Below, piece after piece: positions 33,001-46,144 of a stretch of DNA of 64,000 nt. The stretch is taken from contig CAYWET010000009.1 in NCBI GenBank assembly GCA_964457245.1, positions 25,284 through 89,283 on the forward strand, written 5' to 3'. The translations under genes and the position numbers were made by a program. Source of the DNA: an uncultured Chryseobacterium sp. GTDB taxonomy: Bacteria > Bacteroidota > Bacteroidia > UBA10329. Position 1 is the first letter of the stretch, and the number at the start of each line of letters is the position of its first letter. The notes under the pieces are model-generated. The model worked only from the letters and a program-made list of their open reading frames with translations. It searched no databases and had not been told where the DNA came from.

Positions 33001-33593
33001 ACGAGACCGATGACCTTGAAAGCGGCAACGAAACCAGTTACCGCCCACAGTATCACCTTGGTTTTATTCTGGATGAGACGCCCGATTACATTCAAGACAA
33101 CGAGTTTGGTGGTGTAGATAACTACGCACTGGCATCGATGTCGATGGTGGGTGTGAAACAGAATCGTGAGGACATTAAAGCCTTGAAGGAGGGCCGTGGC
33201 CTTAGCAAGATCTCTGATTTCGGTTCTACGGTGATTACCGAAGAGACGCTGTGGGTCGATTTCGACCCTGAATTCTCAAGCTTACTGACCAACGGAGAGC
33301 TACCTGTAGTGAATATTACTGCGCACGAAATGGGTGCAGAGTTGGCCTTGGTAGAAAAGACGGCCCTTGGTTTCAGAGTGAAACGTTTAGGTACCCAACC
33401 TTTGGGTATTGAGTGGATTGCTAACGCTAAGGTGAGGTCTGCAGCTCAAGTTGCAGGTCAAGATGCTGTTGGTGGTAGTATCCCACAGGATATGATGAAC
33501 CAATTAGCGGTTCCTCAAGCAGCCAAAGACAAGATCGCTCTAATACGAGAGGTTGATAAGAATATCCATCAGAAGCTAGGCGTTACTGAATAG
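30027..33593 (+). CDS. tail-fibre-domain protein with N-terminal tandem repeats and C-terminal endosialidase-type intramolecular chaperone (peptidase S74-like) domain
   Basis: 1188 aa; 7 x 38-aa repeats (NTDDQ.ID...LSIEDDGQ...LSSYLD); C-terminal SQRSLKRDINPLDE...LRPSLYKYNNE...HLGFILDETPDYI...YALASMSMVGVKQ matches the CIMCD consensus. Confidence 0.75.
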   Translation: MKKSFLLLGAVIYGTACYSQNVGVDVANPVQKLDVAGGIKIGNTTNNVAGSLRWNGTAFQFYDGSQWITLGANTDDQRIDQFSLVGNSLQLSIEDDGQGPLSVDLSSYLDNTDDQRFDVVQLTGNNLMLSIENDGQPTHSIDFSGYLDNTDDQKIDAFSIASGNLLQISIEDDGQAPLTVDLSSYLDNTDDQRFDVVQMSGNSLLLSIENDGQATHSIDFSGYLDNTDDQQIDAFTIAPGNLLQISIEADGVGPLSVDLSPYLDDTDDQRFDVVQLSGNNLLLSIQDDGQPTHSIDLSGYLDNTDDQQISNFSLSGTTLTLEIENDGQLPQTVNLDPLRRQLIDADLDTWIRVAQDNGSDNDIIRMSTNATERLRVTAAGNLGIGTTTPGTKLTVAGTNTDAVSILGLTSGNDLTTFNDGAQIAFGYNGTHSYQHFVHTRHNSGGAANNAMDFYVSNGVVGNNTVTNGSTHAMTLNAGNMGVGTTSPAQKLHVLGTGRFSSLASSGNDLVYANANGDLVVSSIDPASIHSGTGTANYLARWTSATALGTGTTYDNGTNVGLGTTSPAFKLHVTGDIHPDGKFVVQNSVDGGNSRGIWMWNAGDSNWGIYMGQSGGGRSLGGGTAAAGAGFSAHAIRFRVANSSSQGFIFENSLESNLFSLRGSDGLAYFAGSMGVGTTSPAEKLHVNGSLRVEDGTINSGSDNIRLMEGVRANDNSYEWVGYYSGTTRQGIILYDGAWSGANGLTNEFSITAENSNLLTLNTNGNHIALMPDGSGNVGVSTTSPSQKLDVNGAIRSTDYHYINHSSPSIIFQDTDHRSGVIHVNSNLMYFLSGNGTNGTSWSSNGSYWPLTINMTNDEAIFGGPVQLREGDLTANDHDIWDVENLTVNTISDGEDSRIDIRDYVWFDNPAGAQDMWFDSYANEPHLRPGSAGWGYLGRVQNWWRYVYATSHITMSQRSLKRDINPLDENRAVQELIVSDIDRLRPSLYKYNNETDDLESGNETSYRPQYHLGFILDETPDYIQDNEFGGVDNYALASMSMVGVKQNREDIKALKEGRGLSKISDFGSTVITEETLWVDFDPEFSSLLTNGELPVVNITAHEMGAELALVEKTALGFRVKRLGTQPLGIEWIANAKVRSAAQVAGQDAVGGSIPQDMMNQLAVPQAAKDKIALIREVDKNIHQKLGVTE
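30243..31040 (+). repeat. seven in-frame tandem 114-nt (38-aa) coding repeats, alternating A/B subtypes (228-nt supra-repeat)
   Basis: Unit starts at 30243, 30357, ... with period 114 nt; repeats begin aataccgatgaccag (NTDDQ). Confidence 0.8.
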
Positions 33594-33630
33594 GTTTCGC
33601 TATGGATTCAAACTAAAATTGAGATGGATC

Positions 33631-33672
33631 GGGCCCTGCCAGCAATGGTGGGGCTTTTTCTTTTTGGATCCT
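33631..33672 (+). terminator. intrinsic terminator downstream of tail-fibre-like gene
   Basis: ccctgcc-agcaat-ggtgggg stem then ctttttcttttt. Confidence 0.45.
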
Positions 33673-33744
33673 CGGCTCCTAAAATTTATGATTATTAGCC
33701 TGAGCCAACAAATGACGAGTATTGGAACCGAGTTGGTTGGATGG

Positions 33745-34509
33745 TCAATTGAAGCTGATGCCTGCGGATCCCGAACGAAGCTTCCCGATGTACTCAATGA
33801 GTACCATGCGAGAGCAGAATTCTGACCAAACATTCTGTTGGCCTTCAATTTTGGCCAATAGCATGTCGTATTGATGAATAACGTCCAAGCAATAGCTCAA
33901 TAGCGATGCTATTCGCTGACCATTCACTGAAAAAACCGCCTTCGACTGTTCTTCGGCCATGTCATAGCTTTCAATGTCCGTGGCCAATTCATCCATCTCC
34001 GCGGCTTTCTTAAATAGAGGATAATACTGCCGAGCCAACTCATCGAGTTCTTGTTCATGTTTGTCCTGTAGTTCATTATGGTCGGCAATCAATTGCTCGT
34101 ATTGTTTGTGGTATTTACGTGCTGCAGCATTCTGTTCTTGAATAGCCCCATTGGCTTTATTGACCGCTTTAGAAAGTTCTTCGGCTATACTAAACTGGCC
34201 TAACTCCAGAGCTCCAACATACCCACTGGCCACATCTTGTGCATCTTTTAGCGCTGCGGCTGTTTCTTCAAACTTTACTGTTCTGTCCGCAATCCACTTT
34301 GAAATTTTTGTGGCTCGCTTCCCCATTTCTTCAGCCTGATCAAGATGGCCTTCAACGGTGAGGATTTTTTGAGCCAGATGGTCCGCCAACTCCTGATCGG
34401 TTTCTGTCCAAGCGCTGTCTGAGTTATACCTGTAGGCTACCTTTCCCAGCTTGTGTATTATTTCTCTTGTTTCTTCCATAACATCCATAAGATAAGAAAT
34501 GGTTGGCAC
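33745..34509 (-). CDS. hypothetical alpha-helical/coiled-coil protein
   Basis: 254 aa, no signal peptide, charged heptad-like segments. Confidence 0.5.
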   Translation of the reverse strand: MPTISYLMDVMEETREIIHKLGKVAYRYNSDSAWTETDQELADHLAQKILTVEGHLDQAEEMGKRATKISKWIADRTVKFEETAAALKDAQDVASGYVGALELGQFSIAEELSKAVNKANGAIQEQNAAARKYHKQYEQLIADHNELQDKHEQELDELARQYYPLFKKAAEMDELATDIESYDMAEEQSKAVFSVNGQRIASLLSYCLDVIHQYDMLLAKIEGQQNVWSEFCSRMVLIEYIGKLRSGSAGISFN

Positions 34510-34843
34510 TTAGTTGAACGTAGAGGGTCGTTGAGTTATTGCTGAAATCATCACCAATTATTTAAGTGGTTGGGGTGGTACGTGTTGCATGACTGGTGGC
34601 TCGTATTATTTCGAATTATCGTATAAATTGAGTTGGATTAGGCTTGTTTTCCCTTTTGTCTTGATACAAAAGGGAGAAAAAATCAAGCCTGCCTAAACCC
34701 AATTGAGAAATACTACGGACCCCGCCTGCGCTGATGAAAAGAAACTCATCGCCTTCGGCTCTTCAAACACCTTTTCATCTTTCGGCCTGCCCTGCGTCCT
34801 TGATTTCCGCATTTGGGTTTAGTAGGGCGGTGGGGTGGATGCC

Positions 34844-35803
34844 TTAAGGCTCCACAACAGGTGTAAGGGAAAAGTTGAATTCGTAGCTGTTGCCAGCTTC
34901 TACTTCAATGGGAGTGGAAGAGGGTTCGAAGTTTTCTGCTGTGGCTTCCAGCGTTGCGGAAAATGTGGTAGCTGGCGGGACATCGGTAAATTCCATTTCA
35001 TAGCTGCCATCATCTGTAGTTGTGGTTATTATCGGGTCGCCCCCATCACTTGGTATGAGCGTTACCGTTGCGCCAACTATTGGGGAGGATGTGCTATTGT
35101 CGGAGACGTTACCTGAAATGGTGATGGAGTTATCTGGAGTTGGTGGCGTGGTGGAGCCTCCGCGGTCAATGATGATACGTGCCTGCTTGTAAGCTGCATA
35201 AAGGTCTGGGTCTGAGAGTTTGAAGACCATCATGAGCGGGTCGAGTTGTGATTTGAATAGGCTTCCCGTATTGGAGAAGAGCGTTTTGAGGGCTTCGGTA
35301 TGAAGGTGGCGAGCGTTGATGGCTTCTCTGGGTGTTTCGAGTACGGCCGTGTAAGCATCTAAGGCGTCTTGCCATGCGGTGACGGCCGCTGCATCTATAC
35401 CATAATCAGCAAGGCTTGCGATGTTATCGTTTACGAGGGAGATGCGATAATCGCAGAACCCTTGCATGGTATCATCTTTTATGCGTTGGATGTCACTGAG
35501 GGAGTAATCGAACTCTGCGGCCAAGGTGTTGTTTTCTGTGGCCAGCGCCCATGCCTTGGCGGCTGCGAGTGTTACGGCCGTGATATTATCTAATGTGATT
35601 CTGATGGCGGACTTATCCTGCGCTACACCAGTTGTGTTGGTGGATTGACCCGCTATTTCTGCGTTGATGGCGGTAATGTTGGTGTTGAGTTGGCCGAAGG
35701 CGGTTGCACGAGCAGCCACCAGATCTATGGTAGCTTGATTGTCTTCGTAAAAATCCTGTACCACGAGGTACATATCCAGTCTGTTTGATTGTGAATCTGT
35801 CAT
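34844..35803 (-). CDS. hypothetical protein (helical N-domain + Thr/Ser-rich beta-sandwich-like C-domain)
   Basis: 319 aa; C-terminal VTLIPSDGGDPIITTTTDDGSYEMEF resembles a carboxypeptidase-regulatory/Ig-like module. Confidence 0.55.
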   Translation of the reverse strand: MTDSQSNRLDMYLVVQDFYEDNQATIDLVAARATAFGQLNTNITAINAEIAGQSTNTTGVAQDKSAIRITLDNITAVTLAAAKAWALATENNTLAAEFDYSLSDIQRIKDDTMQGFCDYRISLVNDNIASLADYGIDAAAVTAWQDALDAYTAVLETPREAINARHLHTEALKTLFSNTGSLFKSQLDPLMMVFKLSDPDLYAAYKQARIIIDRGGSTTPPTPDNSITISGNVSDNSTSSPIVGATVTLIPSDGGDPIITTTTDDGSYEMEFTDVPPATTFSATLEATAENFEPSSTPIEVEAGNSYEFNFSLTPVVEP

Positions 35804-36182: not shown

Positions 36183-36506
36183 ATGCTGATTTTGAACTTA
36201 AAACGGTTAATTGAGATGCGCGGAGTGAAGCATTTGCGCACGTACCTCGTAAATCATGGGTTTACGGACGGGGAGGCCCGAAATCTGGTAAGTGGTGAGA
36301 CGCGCTTGCTGCGTTTGACGCTGATAACGCGGTTATGCGAGGTGTTTGATTGCACCCCGAATGAGCTATTGGATTGGCAAGGCGACCCAACTCATGTACT
36401 GGCTGCTGTTAGCAAGAGTAAAGCACCCGATATCTGGAAGATGCTGGAGGGTAAGAGTGCTGAGGAGTTGGAGGAGGTTTTGAGGAGGCTTTCTGAGGGG
36501 GATTGA
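36183..36506 (+). CDS. XRE-family helix-turn-helix transcriptional regulator
   Basis: 107 aa; Cro/C1-type HTH (LRTYLVNHGFTDGEARNLVSGETRLLRLTLITRLCEVFDCTPNELL). Confidence 0.7.
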   Translation: MLILNLKRLIEMRGVKHLRTYLVNHGFTDGEARNLVSGETRLLRLTLITRLCEVFDCTPNELLDWQGDPTHVLAAVSKSKAPDIWKMLEGKSAEELEEVLRRLSEGD

Positions 36507-36598
36507 TGTCATACTAATGCGCTTGATGATTCTGATTGAGACCTATAGGTTGACAAAACATATTTTATTTGTAAATTTGTCAACCAATTATTTACACC

Positions 36599-37672
36599 AT
36601 GGCAGAAAGTGAAAATCTTTTCGGGATTAGGTTGAAACTGGCTCGCAAGAGAGCTGGTCTTTCGCTTAGGGAATTATCTGAATTGCTGGGAGGACGAGTC
36701 TCGAAACAAGCCCTAAACAAATATGAACAGGGTCAAATGAAGCCGTCAAATGAAGTGCTTCTTTATTTGTCAAGGAGCCTTGGTGTCAAACCGGATTATT
36801 TCTTGCAATCCATGCCCGTTGATTTAGGTCAGATTTCCTTCAGGAAGCGGTCGGATTTAAGCAAGAAGGATGAAGAAGTAATTATTGAAAAAGCACGAGA
36901 CTATGTTGAGCGATGTCTGAATGTTGAAAGCTTATTGTCGATTAAACGACAGTTCGAAAACCCTATTAAAAACTTAACTGTCTCTACTAAGAAAGAGGCG
37001 GAACAAGCTGCCGATGCTCTAAGAAAAGCGTGGGAATTAGGAGTAAATCCAATTTCAAACCTAACTGAGATGCTTGAACTGAAAGGCGTTAAGGTTATGT
37101 TGATTGAGGCTACTGATAAGTTTGATGGACTAGCTGTATACGCGGAATCGAATACTCCCATAGTTGTGGTCAACCTTAAGAATAAACCGATTGAAAGACT
37201 ACGGTTTACCATTGTACATGAACTTGCTCACATTTTACTGACCATTCATGATTCAATTAAAGGCAACGATAAATTCATAGAGAAGCTTTGTCATCGTTTT
37301 GCGAGTGCATTTCTGATTCCTTCGGTTAAGCTGATTGAGCTTATCGGTAGTGTCAAAAGAAAGTACATCCAAATAAAAGAGCTCATTTCAATAAAGGAGT
37401 ATTATGGAATTTCGATTAGAGCGATTGTTCATAGACTGAAGGAATTGGAAGTAATAAGTGAAACTTATCATCGGAGGTGGTCAATCTGGCTGAATAAAGA
37501 GTTTGGAAGTAAAAGTGAACCTGGGGACTACATTGGTAAAGAAGAGTCCATGGTATTGCTTAGCCATGTCAACCATGCGCTAGCTGAAGAGATAATCTCC
37601 ATGAGCAAAGCAGCATTTCTCTTGGATGTTAATGTAGCAGATATTCGAAGGTGGCATTTTGAAGAGCAATAA
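36599..37672 (+). CDS. XRE HTH + ImmA/IrrE-family zinc metallopeptidase fusion regulator
   Basis: 357 aa; N-terminal HTH (IRLKLARKRAGLSLRELSELLG...SKQALNKYEQG), C-terminal HEXXH (TIVHELAHILL) M78-type peptidase domain. Confidence 0.85.
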   Translation: MAESENLFGIRLKLARKRAGLSLRELSELLGGRVSKQALNKYEQGQMKPSNEVLLYLSRSLGVKPDYFLQSMPVDLGQISFRKRSDLSKKDEEVIIEKARDYVERCLNVESLLSIKRQFENPIKNLTVSTKKEAEQAADALRKAWELGVNPISNLTEMLELKGVKVMLIEATDKFDGLAVYAESNTPIVVVNLKNKPIERLRFTIVHELAHILLTIHDSIKGNDKFIEKLCHRFASAFLIPSVKLIELIGSVKRKYIQIKELISIKEYYGISIRAIVHRLKELEVISETYHRRWSIWLNKEFGSKSEPGDYIGKEESMVLLSHVNHALAEEIISMSKAAFLLDVNVADIRRWHFEEQ

Positions 37673-38195
37673 GGAAATACTGATACAAGATGCCTGCATC
37701 CTCATTGACCTAATTGAAGTTGGGTTGATTGAAGAGTGTTTCCAACTCGGATATGAGTTCATTACAACGCGAAATGTGGTGTTTGAAATAGAGGATGATT
37801 ATCAATCCCGAATACTTACACAAGTAATTGGCGACCATAAACTTTTTGTTCGCGCTACCAGTGACAGTCAAGTGAATGGTCTTCAAAGCCAATTCTCCGG
37901 CCTGTCTCTTGCAGATTGCTCGGTCATGTCGTTAGGAATTAGCTTGAAATGTCGGGTTTTGACTGCGGATGGGGCATTGAGAAAAATTTGTCAGGAAAAA
38001 GGGGTTAGGGTAGGTGGTTTTTTATGGGTGCTCAACCAACTTGTTAAATCAAATACAATTTCGCCCAACCGCGGTATAACCGCTTTAGACAAATACTCGA
38101 TGGTTAACCAAAGACCCGCGCCTAAGCATGCCGTTCAGGGACTCCGGAAAGAGTTTGTTATATTGGCAGATGAAACTAACAACACCAAGATTTGA
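37659..38195 (+). CDS. PIN-like domain nuclease (DUF4411-like)
   Basis: 178 aa; acidic residues in PIN pattern (ILIQDACILIDL ... EIEDD ... SLADCS ... VLTADGAL); 14-nt overlap with upstream ImmA gene. Confidence 0.6.
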   Translation: MKSNKEILIQDACILIDLIEVGLIEECFQLGYEFITTRNVVFEIEDDYQSRILTQVIGDHKLFVRATSDSQVNGLQSQFSGLSLADCSVMSLGISLKCRVLTADGALRKICQEKGVRVGGFLWVLNQLVKSNTISPNRGITALDKYSMVNQRPAPKHAVQGLRKEFVILADETNNTKI

Positions 38196-38963
38196 ATGGA
38201 TTATAGCTCGGAGTTTCCAGTATTCCTTGCATTTGCAGCCTTGACTTGGGGAGCATTTTTTGGTGCCTTGGGTAACAAACTGGTTGCGATTAACTACAGT
38301 TCTAGATGGAGAAATGCTTACTACGCATTGGGCGGGGTTTCTATGTTGGTTGGCGTTGCTGGTTTTTTAGTGATTGAGGAGCTAAAACTTTTGGATTGGG
38401 GTGTCCTTATCATGTTGGTGATATCTGGATTGGTCATACTTTACTTTACCTGGAAAGTACTCCACACAAAGGATGTTTTTCAGACGGCTGAATTGGCCTC
38501 CAAAATAAATGGGTTTACAGAACTAGCGGATAGAGGTAAGATATGTTTGCTTGGAGGAGACTTAGACTTCTTCGGTGAGACAGAATCGGACATGGATGAT
38601 AATGACCAATACAAGTTTTTGAAGAATAAAAATTTCACTAGTGTGTCAATTCTATGTGAGGAGCCAATCCATCCAAATACAAAGACCAGATATGGCAAAA
38701 TTCTACGCGATATAAGAGGAACAGAACTGGGTTTTTATAACCCTAAGAATGCAGACTTGAATATCCGAGGTCGGATAACAACAAGGCAAGGAGTACCTAA
38801 GATGCTGATTTATTCTAAGCTTGAAACAAATCAATACAAAGCCATTGAAACTGACACGGCAAATTCTAATGGGGCGTTGTACTCAAATATATGGGGTTTG
38901 GCTTGGAGCCTCGCTACTAAAATGACACCCGAAGAAGTCCAGAGACTAAAGGATAACAGTTGA
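38196..38963 (+). CDS. membrane protein with N-terminal 3 TM helices and uncharacterised cytoplasmic C-terminal domain
   Basis: 255 aa; TM helices at ~8-30, 45-65, 70-90; starts 1 nt after PIN-like stop. Confidence 0.6.
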   Translation: MDYSSEFPVFLAFAALTWGAFFGALGNKLVAINYSSRWRNAYYALGGVSMLVGVAGFLVIEELKLLDWGVLIMLVISGLVILYFTWKVLHTKDVFQTAELASKINGFTELADRGKICLLGGDLDFFGETESDMDDNDQYKFLKNKNFTSVSILCEEPIHPNTKTRYGKILRDIRGTELGFYNPKNADLNIRGRITTRQGVPKMLIYSKLETNQYKAIETDTANSNGALYSNIWGLAWSLATKMTPEEVQRLKDNS

Positions 38964-40354
38964 TGTTGGATTCGCTCGAAATAGTAATTGTTAATTCTCC
39001 GTTGTTCAGGGAGTCTAGTGATAAGTATGACGAAGATTCACTACCTCCCTTAGGCTTGGGCTACATCGCAACAGAGTTAAAAATAAGAGGTTTCAAGGTT
39101 AGGTTAATTGATGCTGTAGACCAGAGAATTCCATTGGTGGATTTATTGAAATCCTTGAACAAGAACAAGCCAAGGTTCGTTGCTACGAACATATTTACCA
39201 CGAACTACGAATTGGTAAAGGAACTTATAGAGGGATTAGATTTTCAATCTCACATTATTGTCGGTGGGCTAGCAACGAAGGATCTCTACGAAAAAATATT
39301 TTCATGGAATACCATGAACAATATTGATGTTGTTGTTGGGGATGGCGAGTTTATAGTCCCGGCTATTGTTGGGCGGAATGTGGAGCAACAACCAGTCGCT
39401 TCTCAGCCTTACCGTAGAGCTTTTCAGGTGGATAAGAATTCTCCCTATGTAGTTGAAGACATTTCCCAGGTGTCATTAGATCGTTCGTTCTTTAAAAATG
39501 AGCCTATTCGCCACCCATTTGGCTTTTCTGAGGCAAATATTGTTGCGAGTAGAGGCTGTATTTACAACTGTGCTTTTTGTGCGGCTGCTCGAAGCCTAAA
39601 CCTTGACTACCCTGTCAGAGAACGTTCTGTTCAATCAATTAAGAATGAATTAAGAGAAATTGCTGCAGACTACCCGGAAGTTAGTTCAATTCGGGTGCTG
39701 GATGATTTGTTTTTAAAAAACTCAAAGAGCGTTAATACAGCAATTCAGGTATTTCAAGGGGAAGGTTTCCAATGGCGATCAATGGCCCATGTCATGACAT
39801 TTGACAAGCTGGATGCAGAACCTTTAGCAAGATTAAAGGATAGTGGCTGCAAGGAGTTGTTCATTGGTGTCGAATCTGGATCTCCTAAGGTTCTAAAATC
39901 AATCAGAAAGACCCCAGACCGCAATAGAATCACAACCAACATATTGAAAGTTTTTAAAGCTGGAATTGATGTGAAAGGGTACTTTATTTACGGTTTCCCA
40001 GAAGAGACCGAGGCTGATATGAAGCTGACACTCGACTTAGCCAAAGAGTTAGTCAAACAGGCAGAAGCCAATGGTGTTTCCTTCAGGACAAGTGTGTTTC
40101 AGTATCGACCGTATCACGGAACGGAAATTCACCGTTCGTTAGCAAATCAAGGTAAGGAGCTTGACGTGAAACGAGTTCAACAGAATGATGAACTTTCTGA
40201 ATTGGTCGGCAGACTTCAATTCAATTTCCATAGTGGGAATTATTCGAAAGTGTCTGACCAAAGACTGCATGATTATATTTACCGGACAACTTTGCTAAAT
40301 GATCCGGAACTCTTCTCAGGAAAAGCCTTTAAGACTGAATCCAAGAGAGCGTAG
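38960..40354 (+). CDS. B12-binding-domain radical SAM protein (class B)
   Basis: 464 aa; N-terminal Rossmann-like cobalamin-binding domain (GLGYIATELKIRGFKVRLIDA), CxxxCxxC (RGCIYNCAFCAA), TIM-barrel rSAM core; 4-nt overlap with upstream gene. Confidence 0.85.
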   Translation: MMLDSLEIVIVNSPLFRESSDKYDEDSLPPLGLGYIATELKIRGFKVRLIDAVDQRIPLVDLLKSLNKNKPRFVATNIFTTNYELVKELIEGLDFQSHIIVGGLATKDLYEKIFSWNTMNNIDVVVGDGEFIVPAIVGRNVEQQPVASQPYRRAFQVDKNSPYVVEDISQVSLDRSFFKNEPIRHPFGFSEANIVASRGCIYNCAFCAAARSLNLDYPVRERSVQSIKNELREIAADYPEVSSIRVLDDLFLKNSKSVNTAIQVFQGEGFQWRSMAHVMTFDKLDAEPLARLKDSGCKELFIGVESGSPKVLKSIRKTPDRNRITTNILKVFKAGIDVKGYFIYGFPEETEADMKLTLDLAKELVKQAEANGVSFRTSVFQYRPYHGTEIHRSLANQGKELDVKRVQQNDELSELVGRLQFNFHSGNYSKVSDQRLHDYIYRTTLLNDPELFSGKAFKTESKRA

Positions 40355-40928
40355 TGCGTGTAAGGCGTGTGGCCTTTATTTGAATCAACTTCCATTACTA
40401 GACAAGACTAAAAAAGGTCAGGTATTCTGGGTTGGTCTATCGGCTGTTCAAATGGAAGAAGATCAGCCTCCATTATCGTATGACACAAGGTCGGGTTCTC
40501 TAGTTGCAGAAGTAGAAAATCCCTTCGTCAAAGAACTTTCGTTCTATAGAACCAACGTGGTGAAATGCTTGCCATTAAATTTGGATGATAAGATTCGATA
40601 TCCACTAAAGGGTGAGATGGAGAAATGTTTTCCAAATCTTGAAGAAGAAATCGATTTTTTGCAACCCTCGATTATTTTTTTGCTAGGTAGGCAAGCTGCT
40701 GATTTTGTCATGCGGAAATACGGCTTTGGTTCTTGGAGTCTTAATGCTGAGTTTAATTACGAAGCTTATCATTCTTCTGGAATGACTTTTATTCCAGTGC
40801 ATCATCCATCATATATACTTGTTTACAAGAGGAAGCGACTGATAGATTATGTTCAAGGAATTCAAAAACATCTGACCCAATTAGTAGCAAAACCTATTAG
40901 TTTGAGCGAGCATGTCGAGCAACCATAA
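40299..40928 (+). CDS. uracil-DNA glycosylase superfamily (family-4-like) protein, divergent active site
   Basis: 209 aa; C21-x2-C24...C90...C110 like the family-4 4Fe-4S ligands, C-terminal VHHPSYIL (HPS motif B), but motif A GE(A/G)PG replaced by VGLSAV; start uncertain (56-nt overlap with rSAM gene). Confidence 0.65.
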   Translation: MIRNSSQEKPLRLNPRERSACKACGLYLNQLPLLDKTKKGQVFWVGLSAVQMEEDQPPLSYDTRSGSLVAEVENPFVKELSFYRTNVVKCLPLNLDDKIRYPLKGEMEKCFPNLEEEIDFLQPSIIFLLGRQAADFVMRKYGFGSWSLNAEFNYEAYHSSGMTFIPVHHPSYILVYKRKRLIDYVQGIQKHLTQLVAKPISLSEHVEQP

Positions 40929-41710
40929 TGAAACCCGGTCAGAGATTATGGACACGAGAAGAGTTGATACTTGCTGTCAACCTGTATTCAAAACTCCCTT
41001 TTGGGAAGTTCCATAAGAGCAATCCTGAAGTAAAGAAGTTGGCGGATCTGATTGGAAGAACGCCTTCATCTGTTGGTTTTAAACTTGGGAATTTGGCAAG
41101 CTTTGACCCGATGCTTCAAGCAAGGGGCATTAAAGGTGCGAGTAACGCCAGCAAGCTTGACCGCGAGATATGGGATGAGTTTTACGGCAACATTGACTCG
41201 CTGGCATTTGAAAGTGAGTTGCTTCGCGCAAAGAAGGAGTTACGTTCGCCTGATTCCATTTTAGAGAACGAACCTGATTTGAATGAAATTCTTGCTAAGA
41301 AAGGGAAGGAGAGAGAAGCACTGGTCAAGGTGAGGGTGAATCAGAATTTCTTCAGGCAAATGGTGCTTGCTGCATATGACAGCACATGCTGCATCACGGG
41401 TTTGCAGCAGGAGGAATTTCTAGTGGCGGGTCATATTAAGAGATGGGCCGATGATGAAAAGAACCGAATGAATCCGCACAATGGAATTGCCATTAACGCA
41501 CTTCATGACAAAGCTTTTGAGAAAGGCTATATCACAATAACCCCTGACTACTTAATCAAGGTTTCTTCCAAATTGAAAAAGAAGGCGGCTTCGGAAAAGG
41601 TAGAAGAGCTTTTCCTTCAATATGATGGGAAACCGATTCATGAGCCGAAGAAGTTTTGGCCTGAACCAGAGTTTTTGAAATATCATAACGATAGCATCTT
41701 CTTGAACTAG
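40928..41710 (+). CDS. HNH endonuclease (HNH_2 / restriction-type) with N-terminal helical domain
   Basis: 260 aa; CCITG...AGHIKRW...NPHNGIAINALHDKAFEKGYITI matches HNH_2 nuclease signature; start ATG overlaps stop of UDG-like gene. Confidence 0.8.
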   Translation: MKPGQRLWTREELILAVNLYSKLPFGKFHKSNPEVKKLADLIGRTPSSVGFKLGNLASFDPMLQARGIKGASNASKLDREIWDEFYGNIDSLAFESELLRAKKELRSPDSILENEPDLNEILAKKGKEREALVKVRVNQNFFRQMVLAAYDSTCCITGLQQEEFLVAGHIKRWADDEKNRMNPHNGIAINALHDKAFEKGYITITPDYLIKVSSKLKKKAASEKVEELFLQYDGKPIHEPKKFWPEPEFLKYHNDSIFLN

Positions 41711-41715
41711 TTAGT

Positions 41716-41937
41716 ATGATGAAATTGTCGAACAAGAGTGTGCCGAAACTTTATGCCATTTACAAGAATGGCAATCATTTGGGTAATGAAAGAGGTGCAA
41801 CACCACAGGATGCGATTGAAAATTATGTCAAGGCAGCGTTACTTGGTGAGTTCTTAATTGATAAAGAATTCATGCAATTGTATTCAGCAAAGGTTGCAAA
41901 GCCTGGAAAGCATTTTATTGCAAGCACTTTGCGCTGA
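41716..41937 (+). CDS. small hypothetical protein (last ORF of operon)
   Basis: 73 aa; begins 6 nt after HNH stop; no motif; could be spurious. Confidence 0.35.
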   Translation: MMKLSNKSVPKLYAIYKNGNHLGNERGATPQDAIENYVKAALLGEFLIDKEFMQLYSAKVAKPGKHFIASTLR

Positions 41938-42023
41938 GAGATTCCGTAACGAGTTCAGTGTGACGAGTAGAATGGGGTTCTGAATTATGATATGGAGGAA
42001 GGGTTTTGGTTTGTGGTGGCGGC

Positions 42024-42069
42024 CGTCCTTCGATACGATTCTTCCTTTGTCAGAATCACTCAGGATGAC
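42024..42069. repeat. 46-nt structured repeat element copy A (conserved arms cgtccttcgatac / aatcactcaggatgac around a hairpin)
   Basis: Arms identical to copy B; central hairpin gattct...agaatc differs from copy B hairpin atttcgat...atcgaaat, so base-pairing is preserved with different sequence. Confidence 0.55.
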
Positions 42070-42319
42070 CTTTGCGGAGGTGGATGGTTGATTCAATGGT
42101 GATGTCGAGAGACAATTTATTCGAATTTGATACTGCGTTTGTTTGTTAACTGAGAAATTGAAACGACAATTGTGAGATTCTTTGGTTTTGTGAGCGAAAA
42201 GCATTGTGGACATTGCACCCTAAATAATCCATGAGGATGCAGTGACCTAGAAGGCTTACGCCTTTCTTGAATCGCTTTCTTCATCAACAGTTTGTTAAAT
42301 TGCGCCAAATTCAACCCCT

Positions 42320-43729
42320 ATGAAATCGCTTATCTCCTTCGTTGCGGCTTTGCTGCTTACTGGTGTTTCTTTTCAGTCCTTTGCTCAAGGATGTTCTCCT
42401 AACCCTGTTTTTGCCAACTCAGGTGTTGGTGTTTACCCGTCTGGTATTCAGATGGATTGCAGTGGCACCAACGCCAGTGCAACCGTTATCGGGTTGACGG
42501 ATACCACGCTGGGTGGTCTTTCTACTGCCTATTTTGATGCCATGCGCGTTCTTGCTGTAGAGGGGCTTCCTGCTGGGCTTGTTGTAGAAACAGATGTGAT
42601 GAACAGTGCCACCGCAGGTTCTCCGTTTGGAGTGTGGGCTTACTCTGGTTCGCAACCCGTGTTCGACCCTTCTGTTGGATGTCTGAATATTTCCGGTACG
42701 GCTGTTGATTGGGCCGCGGCAGCTATCGGAGGTCCAAACAACGATGGTGTATTCCCATTGAAGATTATAGCAGATTATCGGATTGCATACACCGATCCCG
42801 ACATGACCCCGCTTGGGGTGACTAATGGAGAATGGCTTGTCAATACGGCTTTGTCGATTCCAGCTGACACGATTCAGGCCCACCTTTACGTAAACCAATC
42901 TTCTTGCGGGGCTACGCTTTTTGTTTCCACTCAGGTTACGGCCAATACCGATACAACGCAAGGTTGTGACGGTTCGGCAACGGTTGAGGTCTATAACGGC
43001 CAGCCGCCTTACACTTACTCATTCTCTAATGGAGTGGTAACTCCAACTGCTTCAGGACTTTGTCCGGGAACGTACACGGTAGATGTGGTAGATGCCAACG
43101 GAGAAGTGGGTACAGCGGCTTTTGCGGTGGGAGTTGCTTCTAATGTTTACTCCAATGTGAATCCGATTGGATTTCCTCCTGGATTGGACTCGATATTTGG
43201 TTCTTATCAAACCTGTGACCTAGACTATTCTCTTCCAATTGACTCGTTTATGGTCACCCAAGCTTTTACCGGTGGAACAGACACGCTACTTGTGGAGTGG
43301 GTTGTTTATCAGCTTGGTCAGCCATACACGCTTCTAAGCTTTTATCCTGCATTGGGGAATAATCAGGCAGTTGTATCGCTTACATTGTTCTGCGAGAATG
43401 GACGTTCGGAAGCAGGTGTTTTCCAGCTATACGATTACGTAGACCTAGATGCAACGGGTGTTGAGGAGCAAGCGCAGCAGTTGCAGTTCTCGGTTATGCC
43501 GAACCCAACAAGTGGTTTGCCTACGTTGCAATTAGATGCATTGGTGCAACAAGCTCGGGTTGATGTGTTCGACCCTACTGGTAAGCGGGTGCTATCACAG
43601 AACCTATCAGTAGCTGGGAACAATCAAATTGACCTTCAGCACCTCGCAGATGGGTTGTACACGCTTCGGGTTTCTACCCAGCATGGTTTTGGTGTGAAGC
43701 GGATTGTGAAAGCGGGTGGTGTGAGGTAG
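42320..43729 (+). CDS. T9SS sorting-domain cargo protein (paralogue A)
   Basis: 469 aa; signal peptide, C-terminal ...NPTSGLPTLQLDA...DGLYTLRVSTQHGFGVKRIVKA CTD. Confidence 0.85.
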   Translation: MKSLISFVAALLLTGVSFQSFAQGCSPNPVFANSGVGVYPSGIQMDCSGTNASATVIGLTDTTLGGLSTAYFDAMRVLAVEGLPAGLVVETDVMNSATAGSPFGVWAYSGSQPVFDPSVGCLNISGTAVDWAAAAIGGPNNDGVFPLKIIADYRIAYTDPDMTPLGVTNGEWLVNTALSIPADTIQAHLYVNQSSCGATLFVSTQVTANTDTTQGCDGSATVEVYNGQPPYTYSFSNGVVTPTASGLCPGTYTVDVVDANGEVGTAAFAVGVASNVYSNVNPIGFPPGLDSIFGSYQTCDLDYSLPIDSFMVTQAFTGGTDTLLVEWVVYQLGQPYTLLSFYPALGNNQAVVSLTLFCENGRSEAGVFQLYDYVDLDATGVEEQAQQLQFSVMPNPTSGLPTLQLDALVQQARVDVFDPTGKRVLSQNLSVAGNNQIDLQHLADGLYTLRVSTQHGFGVKRIVKAGGVR

Positions 43730-43778
43730 ATTATGTTCCATCCGGCCATTTTCCGACCTTGCGACAAATTCAACCCGT

Positions 43779-45209
43779 ATGATATACCTACTGCGTCTTA
43801 GTTGTGCCATTGCTATTCTATTTGTTTCGGCAAGTGCATTCGGTCAGTGTAACCCCGATCCCGCCTTTGCCTCATCGCCATTCGGTATTTATCCGGTAGG
43901 GCCAATGCAGATGGATTGCAGCGGAACCAACTCCAACGTAACTGTTGTTGGCCTTTCAGATACAATTATCGAAATTATACCCAACGGATCAAGCGCAACC
44001 GTGTATTTTGATGCCACCCGTGTTGATACGGTCATCGGGTTGCCCACAGGGCTTTCTGTTGAAACAGATGTAATGGACAGTGCCAATGCGGAGTCGCCTT
44101 ACGGCTTTTGGACCTACACTGGGGTCAACCCGAATTTTACACCAAGCATAGGATGTATGAATATCACGGGTTCAGCATCTGCTTGGAATACTGCTGCAAC
44201 AGGAGGTCCGAACAACGATGGAGAGTACCCGCTTACCATTACTATAGATAGAAGGGTTGCGTATTCAAATCCGGACATTGCGTTTATTGTTCCGAATGGT
44301 TCTTGGGTTTCGGTTACTGGCAATGCAGAGCTTAGCGCTGATACCGTAGAGGTGTTGCTTCGGGTAAATGAATCCGCATGTTCTGGAGACCTGTCTTTGG
44401 TCCCTGCGGTTACCGCAAGTGCTGATACCTCACAGGGCTGCACTGGGTCTGTAACGGTTGACGTGTATTACGGTCAACCACCATACACGTACCTGTTCTC
44501 TAATGGGACATCGGGCTCTTCTAGTGTTACAGGTCTTTGCCCGGGAGTTTATTCGGTACAGGTATCAGATGCCAATGGCGCATCAGGATATGCCGAGTTT
44601 GCAATAGGCATGGAGGCCAATGTTTATACGAATGTTCCTCCTGGTCCAGTTCCACTAGGAACGGACTCACTGTTCTTCACTTCAGGTAATTGCGATCTGG
44701 ACTATAACCTGCCAGTGGATTCGTTTTCGGTTGTTGATGCATTTGCCTTTGGTAATGATACAATTGCCGCCACATGGGTTATTTATCAGCTGGGTAACCC
44801 TTATACCGTGGTTTCATTTTATCCAGATGGGAACCCCCAGCCAACTGTATTGTCGTTAGTGGTTTTTTGTGAGAATGGCCGCGCTGCAACAGGTGTCTTT
44901 CAATTATTTGAATACGTTGACCTCTCTGTTGTAACAGGAATAAGCGATAACGTACATTCGATTGACTTCTCTGTTGTGCCGAACCCGTCCAATGGTCTAT
45001 TCCGCTTGGTTCTCGATAATAATGCTGGCTTAAATTCGGTCGATGTGTTTGACCCAACAGGCAAGTTAGTGCTAACGCAGAACCTGTCGATAGCTGGGAA
45101 CAATCAAATTGACCTTCAGCATCTCGCAGATGGCTTGTACACGCTTCGGGTTTCTTCCCAGAATGGTTTTGGCGTAAAGCGGATTGTGAAAGCTGGTGGG
45201 TTGAGGTAG
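43779..45209 (+). CDS. T9SS sorting-domain cargo protein (paralogue B)
   Basis: 476 aa; ~55-60% identical to paralogue A throughout, last ~120 nt nearly identical at DNA level. Confidence 0.85.
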   Translation: MIYLLRLSCAIAILFVSASAFGQCNPDPAFASSPFGIYPVGPMQMDCSGTNSNVTVVGLSDTIIEIIPNGSSATVYFDATRVDTVIGLPTGLSVETDVMDSANAESPYGFWTYTGVNPNFTPSIGCMNITGSASAWNTAATGGPNNDGEYPLTITIDRRVAYSNPDIAFIVPNGSWVSVTGNAELSADTVEVLLRVNESACSGDLSLVPAVTASADTSQGCTGSVTVDVYYGQPPYTYLFSNGTSGSSSVTGLCPGVYSVQVSDANGASGYAEFAIGMEANVYTNVPPGPVPLGTDSLFFTSGNCDLDYNLPVDSFSVVDAFAFGNDTIAATWVIYQLGNPYTVVSFYPDGNPQPTVLSLVVFCENGRAATGVFQLFEYVDLSVVTGISDNVHSIDFSVVPNPSNGLFRLVLDNNAGLNSVDVFDPTGKLVLTQNLSIAGNNQIDLQHLADGLYTLRVSSQNGFGVKRIVKAGGLR

Positions 45210-45344
45210 GCCGCGGCAGGCCTCCTTCTCTTATGCTGTAGGCTTTAGTTACGGCCCTTGGCCGTGAGCTCCCTCTGGTCGGTTCGACTCCGCTCAGCCT
45301 ACGGGCCACTTACTCCTCCGAGTTCAGGCCCTGTACCCTTCGTT

Positions 45345-45390
45345 CGTCCTTCGATACAATTTCGATTACATCGAAATCACTCAGGATGAC
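45345..45390. repeat. 46-nt structured repeat element copy B
   Basis: cgtccttcgatacaatttcgattacatcgaaatcactcaggatgac. Confidence 0.55.
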
Positions 45391-45445
45391 ACTCAGGGCA
45401 CAGCTTATTCCAGCGCTGTAGGCTTCGAGTGCCTCAGCCTACGGC

Positions 45446-46057
45446 TCACTCCTCAGAATCCTCCCCGTCTTCAGGGCCGGTTTCTTCCTCGAGTTCCTCT
45501 TCTTGGTCTTGCTCTTGTTCAATGGCCAGTTTCGGGAACTTGATCTCATCGCGTACCACAAACGCACCTGGCCATCGGTATTCCAGTTCGCGTTGGAGTT
45601 TAATGGCTTCCAGTTCTGTACGGTAATCGCCTACGCGCACTTTAAAGTTGGGCGCTTGGTAAATGAGATATGCCGGAACATTGGGGTTACGCGCCATGAA
45701 ATCTGCCCGTAACTGATTGGCCTCTTGCCGTGCGGTAGTTCCTGAGCCAGAGAAGAGTTGCAGTCGGTAGCCATTCAAGCCATCGCGCAGCGCATTGACC
45801 CGAATATGCCGCATTACCAAAGAGTCGATTCGTACATCGCGCTGTATGGTAAGTGTGGAATCGATGACATCATTGATGGTCTGTTGAGCATGGCTCTGTT
45901 GGAAGCTGAAGAGGAGGAGGAATGCGAGCGTGATGGATGTCAAGCTCACACACAAACCGTCATGCTGAACTCGTTTCAGCATCTCAAGCGGTATGGTCGT
46001 AGACCCTGAACTGAATTCAGGGTGACGGGTGCTAGACGTTGTGGTAATCCTTCTCAT
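45446..46057 (-). CDS. SPOR-domain (peptidoglycan-binding) protein with acidic C-terminal tail
   Basis: 203 aa; YRLQLFSGSG...RVGDYRTELEAIKLQRELE SPOR fold motifs; probable real start at Met 45982 giving a signal/TM segment. Confidence 0.75.
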   Translation of the reverse strand: MRRITTTSSTRHPEFSSGSTTIPLEMLKRVQHDGLCVSLTSITLAFLLLFSFQQSHAQQTINDVIDSTLTIQRDVRIDSLVMRHIRVNALRDGLNGYRLQLFSGSGTTARQEANQLRADFMARNPNVPAYLIYQAPNFKVRVGDYRTELEAIKLQRELEYRWPGAFVVRDEIKFPKLAIEQEQDQEEELEEETGPEDGEDSEE

Positions 46058-46127
46058 ATATATGCGGCAGCCAAGTAACTAAAAAAGGCGATTACGGAGG
46101 TATTACGCGAACATCATTCCGAAGTTA

Positions 46128-46144
46128 TTTAGAACGGTTCTAAA
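46128..46144. promoter_or_regulatory. perfect 17-bp palindrome tttagaacGgttctaaa upstream of actA (candidate operator)
   Basis: 8+1+8 dyad about 110-145 nt upstream of actA start candidates. Confidence 0.35.

Follow-up and report, generated by a model that had tools for sequence, protein, structure and literature searches.

Does the run of eight same-strand open reading frames (o1 to o8) between positions 36,183 and 41,937 of the window, by which we mean the whole 64,000-nucleotide stretch of DNA analyzed here, encode a single defense or DNA-modification system? A preliminary description made from the sequence alone had proposed as much, and all eight reading frames are present as it described them. 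Comparison with other loci, however, reveals that the conserved unit comprises the five genes o2 to o6 (36599-40928), not eight, and that the segment 36549-40928 represents a horizontally mobile operon, conserved across loci, with a core of four genes plus an optional one (Table 1).

Table 1. Coordinates of the operon, its upstream elements and the adjoining HNH gene within the window.
Feature	Coordinates	Strand	Remarks
Operator, inverted repeat GTTGACA-N22-TGTCAAC	36549..36584	.	Presumed site for the o2 HTH domain
Candidate -7 box TAnnTTTG (here TAAATTTG)	36572..36579	+	Overlaps right operator arm
o2, fused Xre-type HTH, Zn-metallopeptidase M78 (ImmA/IrrE-like) and C-terminal domain	36599..37672	+	
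o3, PIN-like DUF3368-type nuclease	37659..38195	+	Presumed toxin/effector
o4, optional membrane protein	38196..38963	+	Three helices at the N-terminus, PLD-fold domain at the C-terminus
o5, radical SAM protein with N-terminal B12-binding-type domain, class-B architecture	38960..40354	+	Likely start ATG 38963
o6, Fe-S UDG-superfamily protein near family 4	40299..40928	+	Motif A replaced by W-V-G-L-S-A-V
o7, HNH restriction-type endonuclease	40928..41710	+	Abuts o6 (TAATG) in this genome only

The close packing of o2 to o8, from which translational coupling had been proposed, is evident at every junction. The o2 and o3 genes overlap by 14 nt, o3 and o4 abut, o4 and o5 share 4 nt (or 1 nt with the ATG at 38963 as the o5 start), o5 and o6 overlap by 56 nt, o6 and o7 overlap by 1 nt, and o7 and o8 lie 5 nt apart. 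The first gene, however, is uncoupled, being separated from o2 by a 92-nt gap that holds the predicted promoter and operator of the operon. The drop in GC content noted by eye (30-40% against 45-50% in neighboring genes) is also real but smaller than had been estimated, with o2-o6 having 40.6% GC versus 45.6% in the rest of the window. This is the lowest value of all 4.3-kb windows (minimum elsewhere, 43.8%), and the GC3 z-scores of the five genes lie between -1.3 and -3.5; o1, on the other hand, stands out as GC-rich (GC3 0.59, z = +3.1), and the GC3 of o7 (0.49) resembles that of the host. The low GC of o2-o6, and the fact that the genes around the module are mostly unrelated from locus to locus, bear out the earlier proposal of horizontal acquisition in a variable region.

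Scanning 185,579 species genomes with the radical SAM (rSAM) protein as seed gave 49 family loci, 48 of which have the UDG-like gene. RmrA and PIN genes are found in 43 and 42, respectively, of the 45 evaluable loci. The membrane protein o4 is encoded in 23 loci. The order RmrA-like HTH/M78, DUF3368 PIN, optional membrane protein, B12-domain radical SAM, and Fe-S UDG-family-4-like protein is common to about 45 species-level genomes and about 17 metagenome contigs. The o2-o6 operon is found in Bacteroidota, with Xanthocytophaga agilis, Chryseolinea sp. H1M3-3 and Flavitalea sp. BT771 as cultured candidate carriers. No copy of o1, the HNH gene o7 or the small reading frame o8 accompanies the module in any of the 49 genome or 80 metagenome loci. 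The HNH protein is therefore not the conserved nuclease arm of the system, as had been suggested, but a lineage-specific neighbor, that is, a separate restriction-type gene outside the conserved module. Profile searches did recover the domains assigned earlier, namely HTH_26 (o1), HTH_3 with Peptidase_M78, a PIN-like domain, B12-binding with Radical_SAM, UDG and HNH_2, and gave no family match for o4 and no match for o8.

An exact copy of the inverted repeat GTTGACA-N22-TGTCAAC precedes the o2 homologue in 39 of the 42 genome loci, and all 42 have one if one-base variants are allowed. The repeat is also found in 29/30 same-clade metagenome loci and is essentially absent elsewhere across 698 kb of loci. 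Distant RmrA-PIN pairs have a like operator architecture with altered half-sites (e.g. GGTTTACA-N22-TGTAAACC). We infer that the HTH domain of o2 binds this repeat. Its left arm is located at about the -33 position, and its right arm overlaps a motif, TAnnTTTG, which we take to be the Bacteroidetes-type -7 promoter consensus; TAnnTTTGTCAAC is present in 41/42 loci, in most of them 12-17 nt ahead of the start codon, and the box in the window presumably acts as the promoter. Only this one promoter-operator is conserved in the module, and no internal promoter region shows such conservation.

Rather than the CapH/CapP-like pair of regulators described previously, o2 is a single protein in which HTH and M78 domains are fused; it belongs to the RosmerTA antitoxin family and matches PADLOC RmrA over its full length (E = 6e-60) as well as PHROG 2439 (1e-68), HTH_3 (4.5e-13) and Peptidase_M78 (3.3e-11). 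The HELAH motif (H207, E208, H211) is invariant, and o2 is probably a RosmerTA-type antitoxin and autorepressor. Although the o3 sequence in the window scores weakly (PIN_6, 17 bits, below cut-off; PADLOC PDC-S70, 1.6e-6), its homologues carry PF11848 (DUF3368), and the acidic residues D11, E43, D86 and D104 are kept in at least 93% of 43 homologues. In 41/41 loci, the PIN gene overlaps the RmrA gene (-8 to -23 nt). A name already exists for part of the system, ImmA-type antitoxins, including RmrA, having been paired with PIN-like partners (PMC10440598). The earlier view of an undescribed candidate under HTH-ImmA-type control holds for the o2-o6 operon, of which no published description was found in the literature, but not for this pairing.

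In o4, the PLD-fold domain is without the catalytic HKD histidine. Pfam matches for o5 include Radical_SAM (5.7e-20) and B12-binding (4.5e-12), its C200-x3-C204-x2-C207 motif is invariant, and no NCBIfam family reaches its cut-off with this protein. The nearest folds to the AF2 model (pLDDT 81) are MgmA, OxsB, AprD4 and TsrM. Cobalamin binding by o5 is putative; AprD4, among its closest solved relatives both by sequence and by fold, is not known to use B12.

The description of o6 as catalytically atypical applies to motif A only, where G-L-S-A stands in place of the canonical UDG sequence GE[A/G]PG, the pocket Asn, H-P-S and all four Fe-S cysteines being retained. Its G-[LI]-S-A, N86, K-x-R-Y-P and H-P-S elements are near-invariant in 104 representative clusters. 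The protein matches Pfam UDG (3.1e-17) and scores 58 bits against TIGR00758 (cut-off, 125), and its best PDB match is the family-4 UDG of S. tokodaii (4zbx; 2e-10), with all four Cys aligned. Lacking a canonical motif A, o6 may be a binding protein and not a glycosylase. The linkage of the rSAM and UDG-like proteins in the preliminary description has stood up well, o6 being an obligate partner of o5: beyond their co-occurrence, the two genes have about 50 nt in common (overlaps of -38 to -83 nt) in the loci scored, L048 being left out, and at least one metagenomic protein (P0344; PF02310, PF04055, PF03167) fuses the two. P0344 is a single full-length fusion, and a frameshift introduced during assembly might in principle account for it.

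Apart from the HNH gene, no other defense or mobile-element genes were found near the block in this window. Elsewhere, the variable flanks of the module frequently contain defense or mobile-element genes. Its neighbors include Shedu and Thoeris (L060) and HicA, HEPN-RES and Mrr (L143), and among 140 immediate neighbors there are AbiEii, Gabija, SduA, SoFic, MADS and restriction-modification genes, all of these being raw occurrences. Integrases, relaxases, T4SS coupling proteins, ArdC and SSB are encoded near some modules. In addition, a Tmk-like kinase adjoins the module in 6 loci (about 12%) belonging to four separate clades, among them a Bacillota locus with a tmk-rSAM-UDG operon.

Our favored reading, which we hold tentatively and at a little less than even likelihood, is that o2-o6 form an inducible anti-phage or abortive-infection operon in which the enzyme pair acts on DNA pyrimidines. 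In this scheme, o2 would behave like the RmrA of RosmerTA, a validated defense system (10.1101/2022.05.11.491447), repressing the operon and neutralizing the PIN toxin until phage infection or DNA damage inactivated it via the metalloprotease domain, so releasing or inducing the effectors. The o5-o6 complex would then work on DNA, with the UDG-like subunit flipping out a pyrimidine (of uracil, thymine or 5-substituted type) and the radical SAM subunit performing radical chemistry on the flipped nucleotide or the resulting site. Damage to invading DNA would be the favored outcome, analogous to that caused by Brig1, a UDG-family-4-like anti-phage glycosylase (PMC11078745), and the enzyme pair, PIN nuclease and, where present, membrane protein might together provide anti-phage defense or abortive infection. 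A self-repressed operon with a toxin-antitoxin pair would, however, fit addiction-stabilized cargo, for example for DNA modification or repair, equally well, and the Tmk-like kinase beside six modules points to nucleotide rather than DNA chemistry.

It is unlikely, in our judgment, that o5-o6, with the Tmk-like kinase where present, instead installs a modified pyrimidine in host or mobile-element DNA, as a self-mark or for anti-restriction, leaving RmrA-PIN as only a regulator and addiction module. Class-B radical SAM enzymes are mostly methyltransferases, and many loci lie on conjugative or mobilizable elements with ArdC and SSB, both of which would suit such a role. Moreover, phage thymidine hypermodification draws on the same three enzyme categories (P-loop kinase, glycosylase-like transferase and radical SAM; PMC8989533), and the kinase recurs in separate clades, including the Bacillota operon. 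Nevertheless, the phage pathway has an HhH fold and an M6 gp53-type radical SAM where the module has a UDG fold and a class-B enzyme, the kinase is present in only a small minority of loci, and the module lacks a conserved companion nuclease of the modification-dependent or modification-blocked kind (HNH in 0/129 loci); nor were copies of the module found on IMG/VR viral contigs, or PHROG matches for o3-o6. The kinase could alternatively activate a chain-terminating or toxic analogue that the radical SAM protein makes from a (deoxy)nucleotide, with the UDG-like protein clearing host DNA for self-protection. OxsB acts on deoxyadenosine phosphates, and viperin makes chain-terminating or toxic nucleotide analogues. 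Among solved B12-radical SAM enzymes, OxsB alone matches o5 by sequence across both domains, besides being among its top folds. In the PADLOC candidate PDC-M51, a radical SAM protein related to o5 (A; 2e-14) is partnered by a Tmk-like B that is matched by 5 neighbors of the module. We consider this very unlikely, however, given that the OxsB similarity is weak (E = 9e-4, 17% identity), that most loci, this window included, are missing the kinase, and that fusion and obligate coupling to a DNA-glycosylase fold better suit a joint DNA substrate.

A reciprocal scan seeded with RmrA bears on whether the operon is instead two independent units, a RosmerTA-like RmrA-PIN pair with unrelated rSAM/UDG-like cargo hitch-hiking behind it in one clade. 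Homologues 41-47% identical to RmrA have the PIN gene in 29/35 cases and the enzyme pair in 0/27 evaluable loci, and the genes that follow these lone pairs are miscellaneous (AbiH, Fic, HsdS, Bro-N, aldehyde dehydrogenase); conversely, L032, L043 and L048 carry rSAM-UDG without RmrA-PIN. Yet the in-clade linkage is near absolute both ways, homologues at least 50% identical having the rSAM gene in 16/17 and the UDG-like gene in 17/17 cases. Gaps within the module are also minimal (median 0-2 nt), the promoter-operator is shared, and linkage persists between proteins that have diverged to ~52% identity, in different families and in two phyla, which makes independence decidedly unlikely. The enzyme-free pairs among distant relatives imply that the module is a RosmerTA-like toxin-antitoxin pair that gained the rSAM/UDG-like pair. 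A further, very unlikely reading is damage-inducible repair, with the module as a mobile counterpart to the pair of COG1573 (UDG-like) and COG4277 (radical SAM) genes under SOS control and HTH-M78 taking the place of LexA as an IrrE/ImmA-like damage sensor. The M78 protease IrrE responds to DNA damage. So does ImmA (PMC10440598), and a LexA-controlled UDG-like and radical SAM operon exists in Bacteroidetes, Verrucomicrobia and Alphaproteobacteria (PMC8565304). On the other hand, o5 and o6 fall outside these two families (TIGR03914, 25 bits versus a cut-off of 190; no TIGR03916-type match among the 25 NCBIfam families listed of 35), the PIN toxin and membrane protein have no obvious repair role, and the patchy, island-like distribution, variable flanks and low GC are unlike housekeeping repair. 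Scarcely credible, finally, is the original eight-gene system in which rSAM and UDG-like proteins mark DNA for a cognate HNH nuclease. Co-transcription of o7 with o6 is possible in this genome, and no methyltransferase was found among the ten scanned genes flanking the block (26182-35803 and 42320-47514), so that an orphan HNH enzyme would need some protection or modification dependence. Against this stand the absence of o1, o7 and o8 from all other module copies, the composition of o1 and o7, which differs from that of o2-o6, and the location of the promoter-operator downstream of o1. The o7 protein itself matches PADLOC HNH (PDLC04132; 1.4e-91) and Pfam HNH_2 (1.1e-8), and its homologues are found singly on a Hymenobacter plasmid or, in N. 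gonorrhoeae, next to vsr and a truncated dcm.

The eight same-strand ORFs (o1-o8) that a preliminary description had assigned to one system, with the HNH protein as its nuclease arm, are all present where it had placed them, but the eight-gene system is contradicted by co-occurrence data. Homologues of o5, the B12-type radical SAM protein, number more than 1000, the best 120 all being full-length with about 58-64% identity. A scan of 185,579 species, each represented by a single genome, in which aligned o5-type radical SAM proteins served as the query, yielded 49 family loci, nearly all in Bacteroidota, together with one in Ignavibacteria and one in Bacillota. When gene presence was scored at each locus by tblastn with all eight window proteins, the UDG-like gene (o6) was found after the radical SAM gene in 48 of the 49 loci, the RmrA-like HTH-M78 gene (o2) and the PIN gene (o3) in 43 and 42, respectively, of the 45 evaluable loci, and the membrane protein gene (o4) in 23 loci. 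The HTH gene o1, the HNH gene o7 and the small ORF o8, on the other hand, accompany the o2-o6 module in none of the 49 genome loci. Remaining flanking ORFs vary among loci, and the next commonest neighbour cluster is present in only 8. In a reciprocal test, metagenomes were scanned with the RmrA-like protein as the query, and only homologues with enough downstream sequence were evaluated. Homologues that are at least 50% identical are accompanied by the radical SAM gene in 16/17 cases and by the UDG-like gene in 17/17; at 41-47% identity the PIN gene is present in 29/35 cases and the enzyme pair in 0/27, the genes beyond the PIN gene being mixed (AbiH, Fic, HsdS, Bro-N, aldehyde dehydrogenase). 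The block is composite, therefore: its two-gene RmrA-PIN backbone also stands alone, and these comparisons indicate that one RmrA-PIN clade gained the enzyme pair, in some cases together with the membrane protein. o1 and o7-o8 are unrelated genes that flank the module in the present genome only.

The tight coupling proposed for all eight genes holds from o2 through o8 but not for o1, which lies 92 nt away from o2. The o2/o3 overlap is 14 nt and o3 and o4 abut. The overlap of o4 with o5 is 4 nt; it shrinks to 1 nt when the ATG at 38963, with which the database protein P0001 begins, is taken as the o5 start codon. In the window o5 and o6 overlap by 56 nt, o6 and o7 have one base in common (TAATG), and o7 and o8 are spaced by 5 nt. 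The proposed domains are also borne out, with HTH_26 in o1, HTH_3 and Peptidase_M78 in o2, B12-binding and Radical_SAM domains in o5, UDG in o6, and HNH_2 in o7. For o3 there is a weak PIN signal of its own and PF11848 (DUF3368) in its homologues, and the domain search gave no family match for o4 or o8. The block had been described as markedly AT-rich; the direction of this difference is correct but its size was overstated, GC content being 40.6% for o2-o6 versus 45.6% for the remaining window. The o2-o6 segment has the lowest GC of all 4.3-kb windows, with per-gene GC3 z-scores of -1.3 to -3.5, and the GC3 of o7 (0.49) is host-like. Of the flanking genes, o1, which encodes a 107-aa HTH_26 protein, has an unusually high GC content (GC3 0.59, z = +3.1); it precedes the module promoter and is missing from every other module copy. 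Similarly, o8 is a putative 73-aa ORF that has no homologue beside any other module copy and is overlapped by a putative minus-strand ORF.

Coordinates of the features discussed, in the window or in the locus named
Feature	Sequence	Position	Remark
Same-strand ORFs o1-o8	window	36183-41937	
o1	window	36183-36506	
Inverted repeat	window	36549-36584	downstream of o1, upstream of o2
Module, o2-o6	window	36599-40928	
o8	window	41716-41937	
Putative ORF overlapping o8	window	41884-42213	minus strand, 109 aa
Por_Secre_tail gene	window	26182-28074	
Por_Secre_tail gene	window	28264-29001	
Repeat protein gene	window	30027-33593	1188 aa
T9SS cargo gene	window	42320-43729	first of tandem pair
T9SS cargo gene	window	43779-45209	second of tandem pair
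Fusion protein P0344	L146	478-2415	metagenomic
Region with Tmk-like gene beside radical SAM gene	L048	126-2308	Bacillota MAG
Region with Tmk-like gene beside module	L013	9929-12350	PADLOC PDC-M51B
Region with Tmk-like gene beside module	L028	4130-6545	PADLOC PDC-M51B
o6 homologue and neighbours	L059	3798-9636	Mangrovibacterium MAG
o7 homologue and neighbours	L058	2950-4741	N. gonorrhoeae

An inverted repeat, GTTGACA-N22-TGTCAAC, is located 5' of the RmrA-like gene, being exact in 39 of 42 loci and present in 42/42 if one-base variants are allowed, and is essentially absent elsewhere in the 698 kb of loci. Its left arm lies at about -33 and its right arm sits within TAnnTTTGTCAAC in 41 of the 42 loci; we take TAnnTTTG to be the Bacteroidetes -7 promoter box. 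This arrangement is as expected of an operon autorepressed through the HTH domain of o2, which would bind the repeat. Because the repeat is downstream of o1, o1 falls outside the transcription unit. Scans for sigma-70 promoters and terminators gave counts close to shuffled expectation (15 versus 13.4 expected; 8 versus 5.6), such scans being uninformative for a Bacteroidota genome, and no RNA family reached the Rfam gathering threshold between 33000 and 44000. As to insertion boundaries, the window holds no tRNA genes, and neither direct nor inverted repeats were found convincingly at the flanks. The operator architecture is also kept in stand-alone RmrA-PIN(DUF3368) pairs (L093-L140), in which the half-sites co-vary, for example GGTTTACA-N22-TGTAAACC, and these variants constitute a natural series for studies of repressor-operator specificity.

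The controller, o2, matches PADLOC RmrA over its full length (residues 11-355, 6e-60) and the phage family phrog_2439 (1e-68), exceeds the Pfam cut-offs for both HTH_3 and Peptidase_M78, and has an invariant HExxH motif (H207-E208-x-x-H211). It also matches the capP (1e-16) and capH (5.5e-10) models, but the CapH/CapP-like regulator pair that had been claimed does not exist as such, both functions being fused in o2, a single protein which, like RmrA, carries an additional C-terminal domain. RmrA is the antitoxin in validated RosmerTA defence systems, and ImmA-type antitoxins have been reported to be paired with PIN-like domains and with membrane-depolarising toxins (10.1101/2022.05.11.491447; PMC10440598). 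Although o3 itself scores below the Pfam PIN_6 cut-off (17.2 versus 27), the PIN-typical acidic residues D11, E43, D86 and D104 are kept in at least 93% of 43 homologues, and we assign it as a putative PIN-like nuclease on the basis of these residues and its DUF3368 homologues. The membrane protein o4 scores as a PLD fold. No histidine is conserved in 41 o4 sequences, however, the HxK(x)4D catalytic motif is missing, and R191-G-R193 occupies the strand on which, by eye, the H-x-K motif would be placed, which sets o4 apart from the canonical nucleases and lipases of the PLD superfamily. Loci with and without o4 are intermingled on the radical SAM tree, and in three loci the o4 gene is located downstream on the opposite strand; o4 is an accessory yet genuinely linked component.

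In the radical SAM protein o5 the CxxxCxxC motif (C200, C204, C207) is invariant, and the match to PF04055 (72.6 bits versus a cut-off of 29.5) is preceded by an N-terminal B12-binding-type Rossmann domain (PF02310, 46.3 bits versus 32.1). Its motif and domains give o5 the class-B architecture, making it a putative cobalamin-using enzyme. The 25 NCBIfam families listed, of 35 found, all fall well short of their cut-offs. An AF2 model (pLDDT 81) is nearest to MgmA, OxsB, AprD4 and TsrM, with MgmA, OxsB and TsrM matched over both domains, and the substrate of o5 cannot be read from this set of nearest folds. AprD4, one of the top matches, has a B12-type domain but does not use B12.

The partner protein o6 aligns with family-4 UDGs (4zbx, 2e-10), and its Fe-S cysteines (C21, C24, C90, C110), which align with those of 4zbx and 1l9g, are kept in at least 93% of 43 homologues. 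It remains below the curated family-4 cut-offs, scoring 58.5 versus 125.3 bits for TIGR00758 and 54.3 versus 250 for NF040953, and motif A reads W-V-G-L-S-A-V in place of GE[A/G]PG. An exhaustive search of 1.84 billion representatives returned 54 clusters at E <1e-30. Across 104 representative clusters of the o6 family G-[LI]-S-A, N86, K-x-R-Y-P and H-P-S are near-invariant, motif B (H169-P170-S171) and the pocket residue N86 being kept in about 96-99% of representatives, and the canonical GExPG is found in none of the best 149. This change in motif A is no proof that o6 is inactive, since family-5 UDGs are active although their motif A lacks a polar residue. The o5 and o6 genes overlap by a median of about 53 nt in the loci scored, and the 645-aa protein P0344 is a head-to-tail fusion of PF02310, PF04055 and PF03167 domains, with an identity of 38% to o5 (across 441 residues) and of 42% to o6. 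Gene overlap and fusion support a physical o5-o6 complex with a shared substrate, with the proviso that P0344, the sole full-length fusion, may be an assembly frameshift. A truncated protein, P0384, resembles a second fusion in which the UDG-like part has lost its Fe-S cysteines, and an apparent rSAM-UDG fusion in a Bacillota MAG (L048) was rejected because the two are separate ORFs there.

Strong PADLOC matches are limited to the RmrA-like protein and to o7, which matches the HNH model PDLC04132 (1.4e-91) and PDLC03546 ('Type II restriction enzyme', 9.6e-42). The nuclease domain of o7 resembles the HNH endonuclease 6yex, presumably the modification-dependent enzyme VcaM4I. A methyltransferase domain is missing from o1-o8 and from ten scanned flanking genes, within about 10 kb on the upstream side and 6 kb on the downstream side, leaving o7 with no cognate methyltransferase nearby; the ten flanking genes also include no mobile-element gene. 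An o7 homologue on a Hymenobacter plasmid is likewise solitary. No other copy of the module has o7 alongside, and so the best interpretation of o7 is a separate defence gene which, in the present lineage, ended up at the operon's 3' end. An intact ORF for an o7 homologue (44% identity) lies between pheS and pheT in N. gonorrhoeae, where it adjoins ORFs for a Vsr-like endonuclease and an apparently truncated (133 aa) C5-methyltransferase (dcm).

Defence genes recur around the module. Shedu and Thoeris lie beside it in a Xanthocytophaga agilis isolate, and HicA, HEPN-RES, Mrr and HEPN/NTase genes in another locus (L143), while 140 immediate neighbours include AbiEii, Gabija, SduA, SoFic, MADS, type I/IIG restriction-modification and several PADLOC candidates. 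Integrases, relaxases, T4SS coupling proteins, ArdC, SSB and RadC are also encoded nearby. We rejected the reading of the module as an immunity region of an ICE or prophage because integrases and relaxases are merely occasional, variable neighbours; a scan of IMG/VR viral contigs with the radical SAM alignment found no relatives, and o3-o6 have no matches in PHROGs. A RiPP or natural-product cluster was likewise rejected, the top NCBIfam match being ApyD at 98 bits versus a cut-off of 750, with no extra conserved gene on clustering ORFs of at least 70 aa, a minimum below which a short precursor-peptide ORF could still be present, and no recurrent transporter or other tailoring genes. A Tmk-like kinase gene adjoins the module in 6 of 49 loci, drawn from 4 clades and in differing orientations. 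In the Bacillota MAG the tmk, rSAM and UDG genes are co-directional and the Tmk-like gene overlaps the start of the radical SAM gene, and in two Bacteroidota loci the Tmk-like gene is followed by one for a conserved 600-aa protein without a Pfam family. In the Mangrovibacterium MAG an o6 homologue (54% identity) is found with the radical SAM gene missing, directly after genes for a BrxC/BrxD-like ATPase and a DEAD/Lhr-like helicase and near that for a UvrD/DUF559 protein; this locus is possibly a second system that uses the same glycosylase-like protein.

The module is a RosmerTA-type operon with unprecedented enzymatic cargo, and a literature search found no description of the o2-o6 gene set. 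As in RosmerTA, a full-length RmrA-family gene overlaps that of a downstream putative toxin in defence-island and mobile-element contexts, and the NetFlax network pairs ImmA-type antitoxins with PIN-like domains (PMC10440598). RosmerTA systems have two genes, however, whereas the o2-o6 clade has four or five, with the radical SAM and UDG-like genes obligately attached and the membrane protein optional, and o3 falls outside the PADLOC RmrT models, its only match in PADLOC being PDC-S70 (1.6e-6). The CapH/CapP and ImmR/ImmA systems also combine an HTH repressor with an M78 metalloprotease, which is thought to lift repression upon infection or DNA damage. As for o6, the closest parallel is Brig1, a UDG-family-4-like glycosylase that is a proven anti-phage effector (PMC11078745). 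Both belong to the UDG superfamily, have the S. tokodaii family-4 UDG (4zbx/4zby) as their nearest solved relative and are found in defence loci, and the o6 homologue beside BrxC/BrxD-like and helicase genes echoes the association of Brig1 with BREX. Whereas Brig1 acts by itself, o6 has a radical SAM enzyme as its obligate partner or fused to it, and, set against Brig1 by description, o6 has four Fe-S cysteines and its own G-L-S-A motif. PDC-M51, a phage-defence candidate for which we found no publication, is weakly matched by o5 (PDC-M51A, 2e-14, 51 bits), and Tmk-like module neighbours in 5 loci match PDC-M51B (down to 8.6e-17), but the window contains no Tmk-like gene and no PDC-M51 model matches o6, o2 or o3.

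We tentatively favour an anti-phage role, at somewhat short of an even chance, because the controller family is validated in defence, Brig1 provides a precedent (PMC11078745), and the distribution is island-like. On this model o2 would repress the operon and neutralise the PIN toxin, infection or DNA damage would inactivate o2 via its protease domain, and the radical SAM/UDG-like complex would act on a flipped pyrimidine in DNA. A more specific proposal, in which the B12-type radical SAM enzyme and the UDG-fold, base-flipping Fe-S protein form a complex, fused in some lineages, that carries out radical chemistry directly on a pyrimidine in polymeric DNA, as an immune effector against invading DNA or to install a new mark, seems to us less likely than not. 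Phage thymidine hypermodification, which employs a 5-HMUDK kinase, a glycosylase-like amino-acid:DNA transferase and a radical SAM isomerase, provides a precedent in which a DNA modification is installed with the help of a radical SAM enzyme (PMC8989533), and the module might instead be a DNA-modification system with analogous enzyme categories. The three categories are shared, and in the phage pathway they act on a pyrimidine in polymeric DNA, but the folds are unrelated (HhH versus UDG), the phage enzyme lacks a B12 domain, the module has no hmU-generating enzyme, and the pathway is phage-encoded whereas the scan of viral contigs revealed no copy of the module.

A damage-inducible repair module would resemble the SOS-regulated COG1573-COG4277 pair, two genes for a family-4-like UDG and a radical SAM protein that are presumed to act on DNA (PMC8565304). 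The subfamilies are distinct, however, in that o5 has a B12-binding domain, o6 scores 25 bits against TIGR03914 versus a cut-off of 190, and TIGR03916 is absent as an o5 match among the 25 NCBIfam families listed of 35. Control is by LexA in the SOS pair but would be exerted by its own HTH-M78 repressor in the module, which is mobile, patchy in distribution and tied to a PIN toxin. Synthesis of nucleotide analogues by viperin- or OxsB-like chemistry is suggested by the Tmk link, as seen in a minority of loci. Finally, the RmrA-PIN backbone and the enzyme pair could be two independent units travelling together, a reading to be set beside both the stand-alone backbones and the obligate attachment of the enzymes in this clade.

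To our knowledge, radical SAM enzymes in defence are so far limited to viperins, and glycosylases to Brig1. If the module under its anti-phage reading is a defence system, it would extend bacterial immunity by a novel effector chemistry that couples a radical SAM enzyme with a protein of glycosylase fold, and would illustrate how a two-gene toxin-antitoxin controller recruits enzymatic cargo. [quoted passage not shown] The enzyme pair also gives well-defined, testable access to the question of why radical SAM and UDG-like proteins recur together, a link that has long lacked an explanation, the COG1573/COG4277 pair being, as far as we know, still uncharacterised. Cultured Bacteroidota carry the module and its operator is sharply delimited, so that both genetics and biochemistry are feasible.

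Within the window, the module lies among T9SS cargo, SIR2 and cytochrome genes. Two of the cargo genes are tandem paralogues with near-identical C-terminal sorting domains (Por_Secre_tail) and an SprB repeat, and two more Por_Secre_tail genes lie upstream of the module. Between these and the module is a gene for a large protein with about eight tandem repeats of about 40 residues ('...LDNTDDQ...') and no significant Pfam family.
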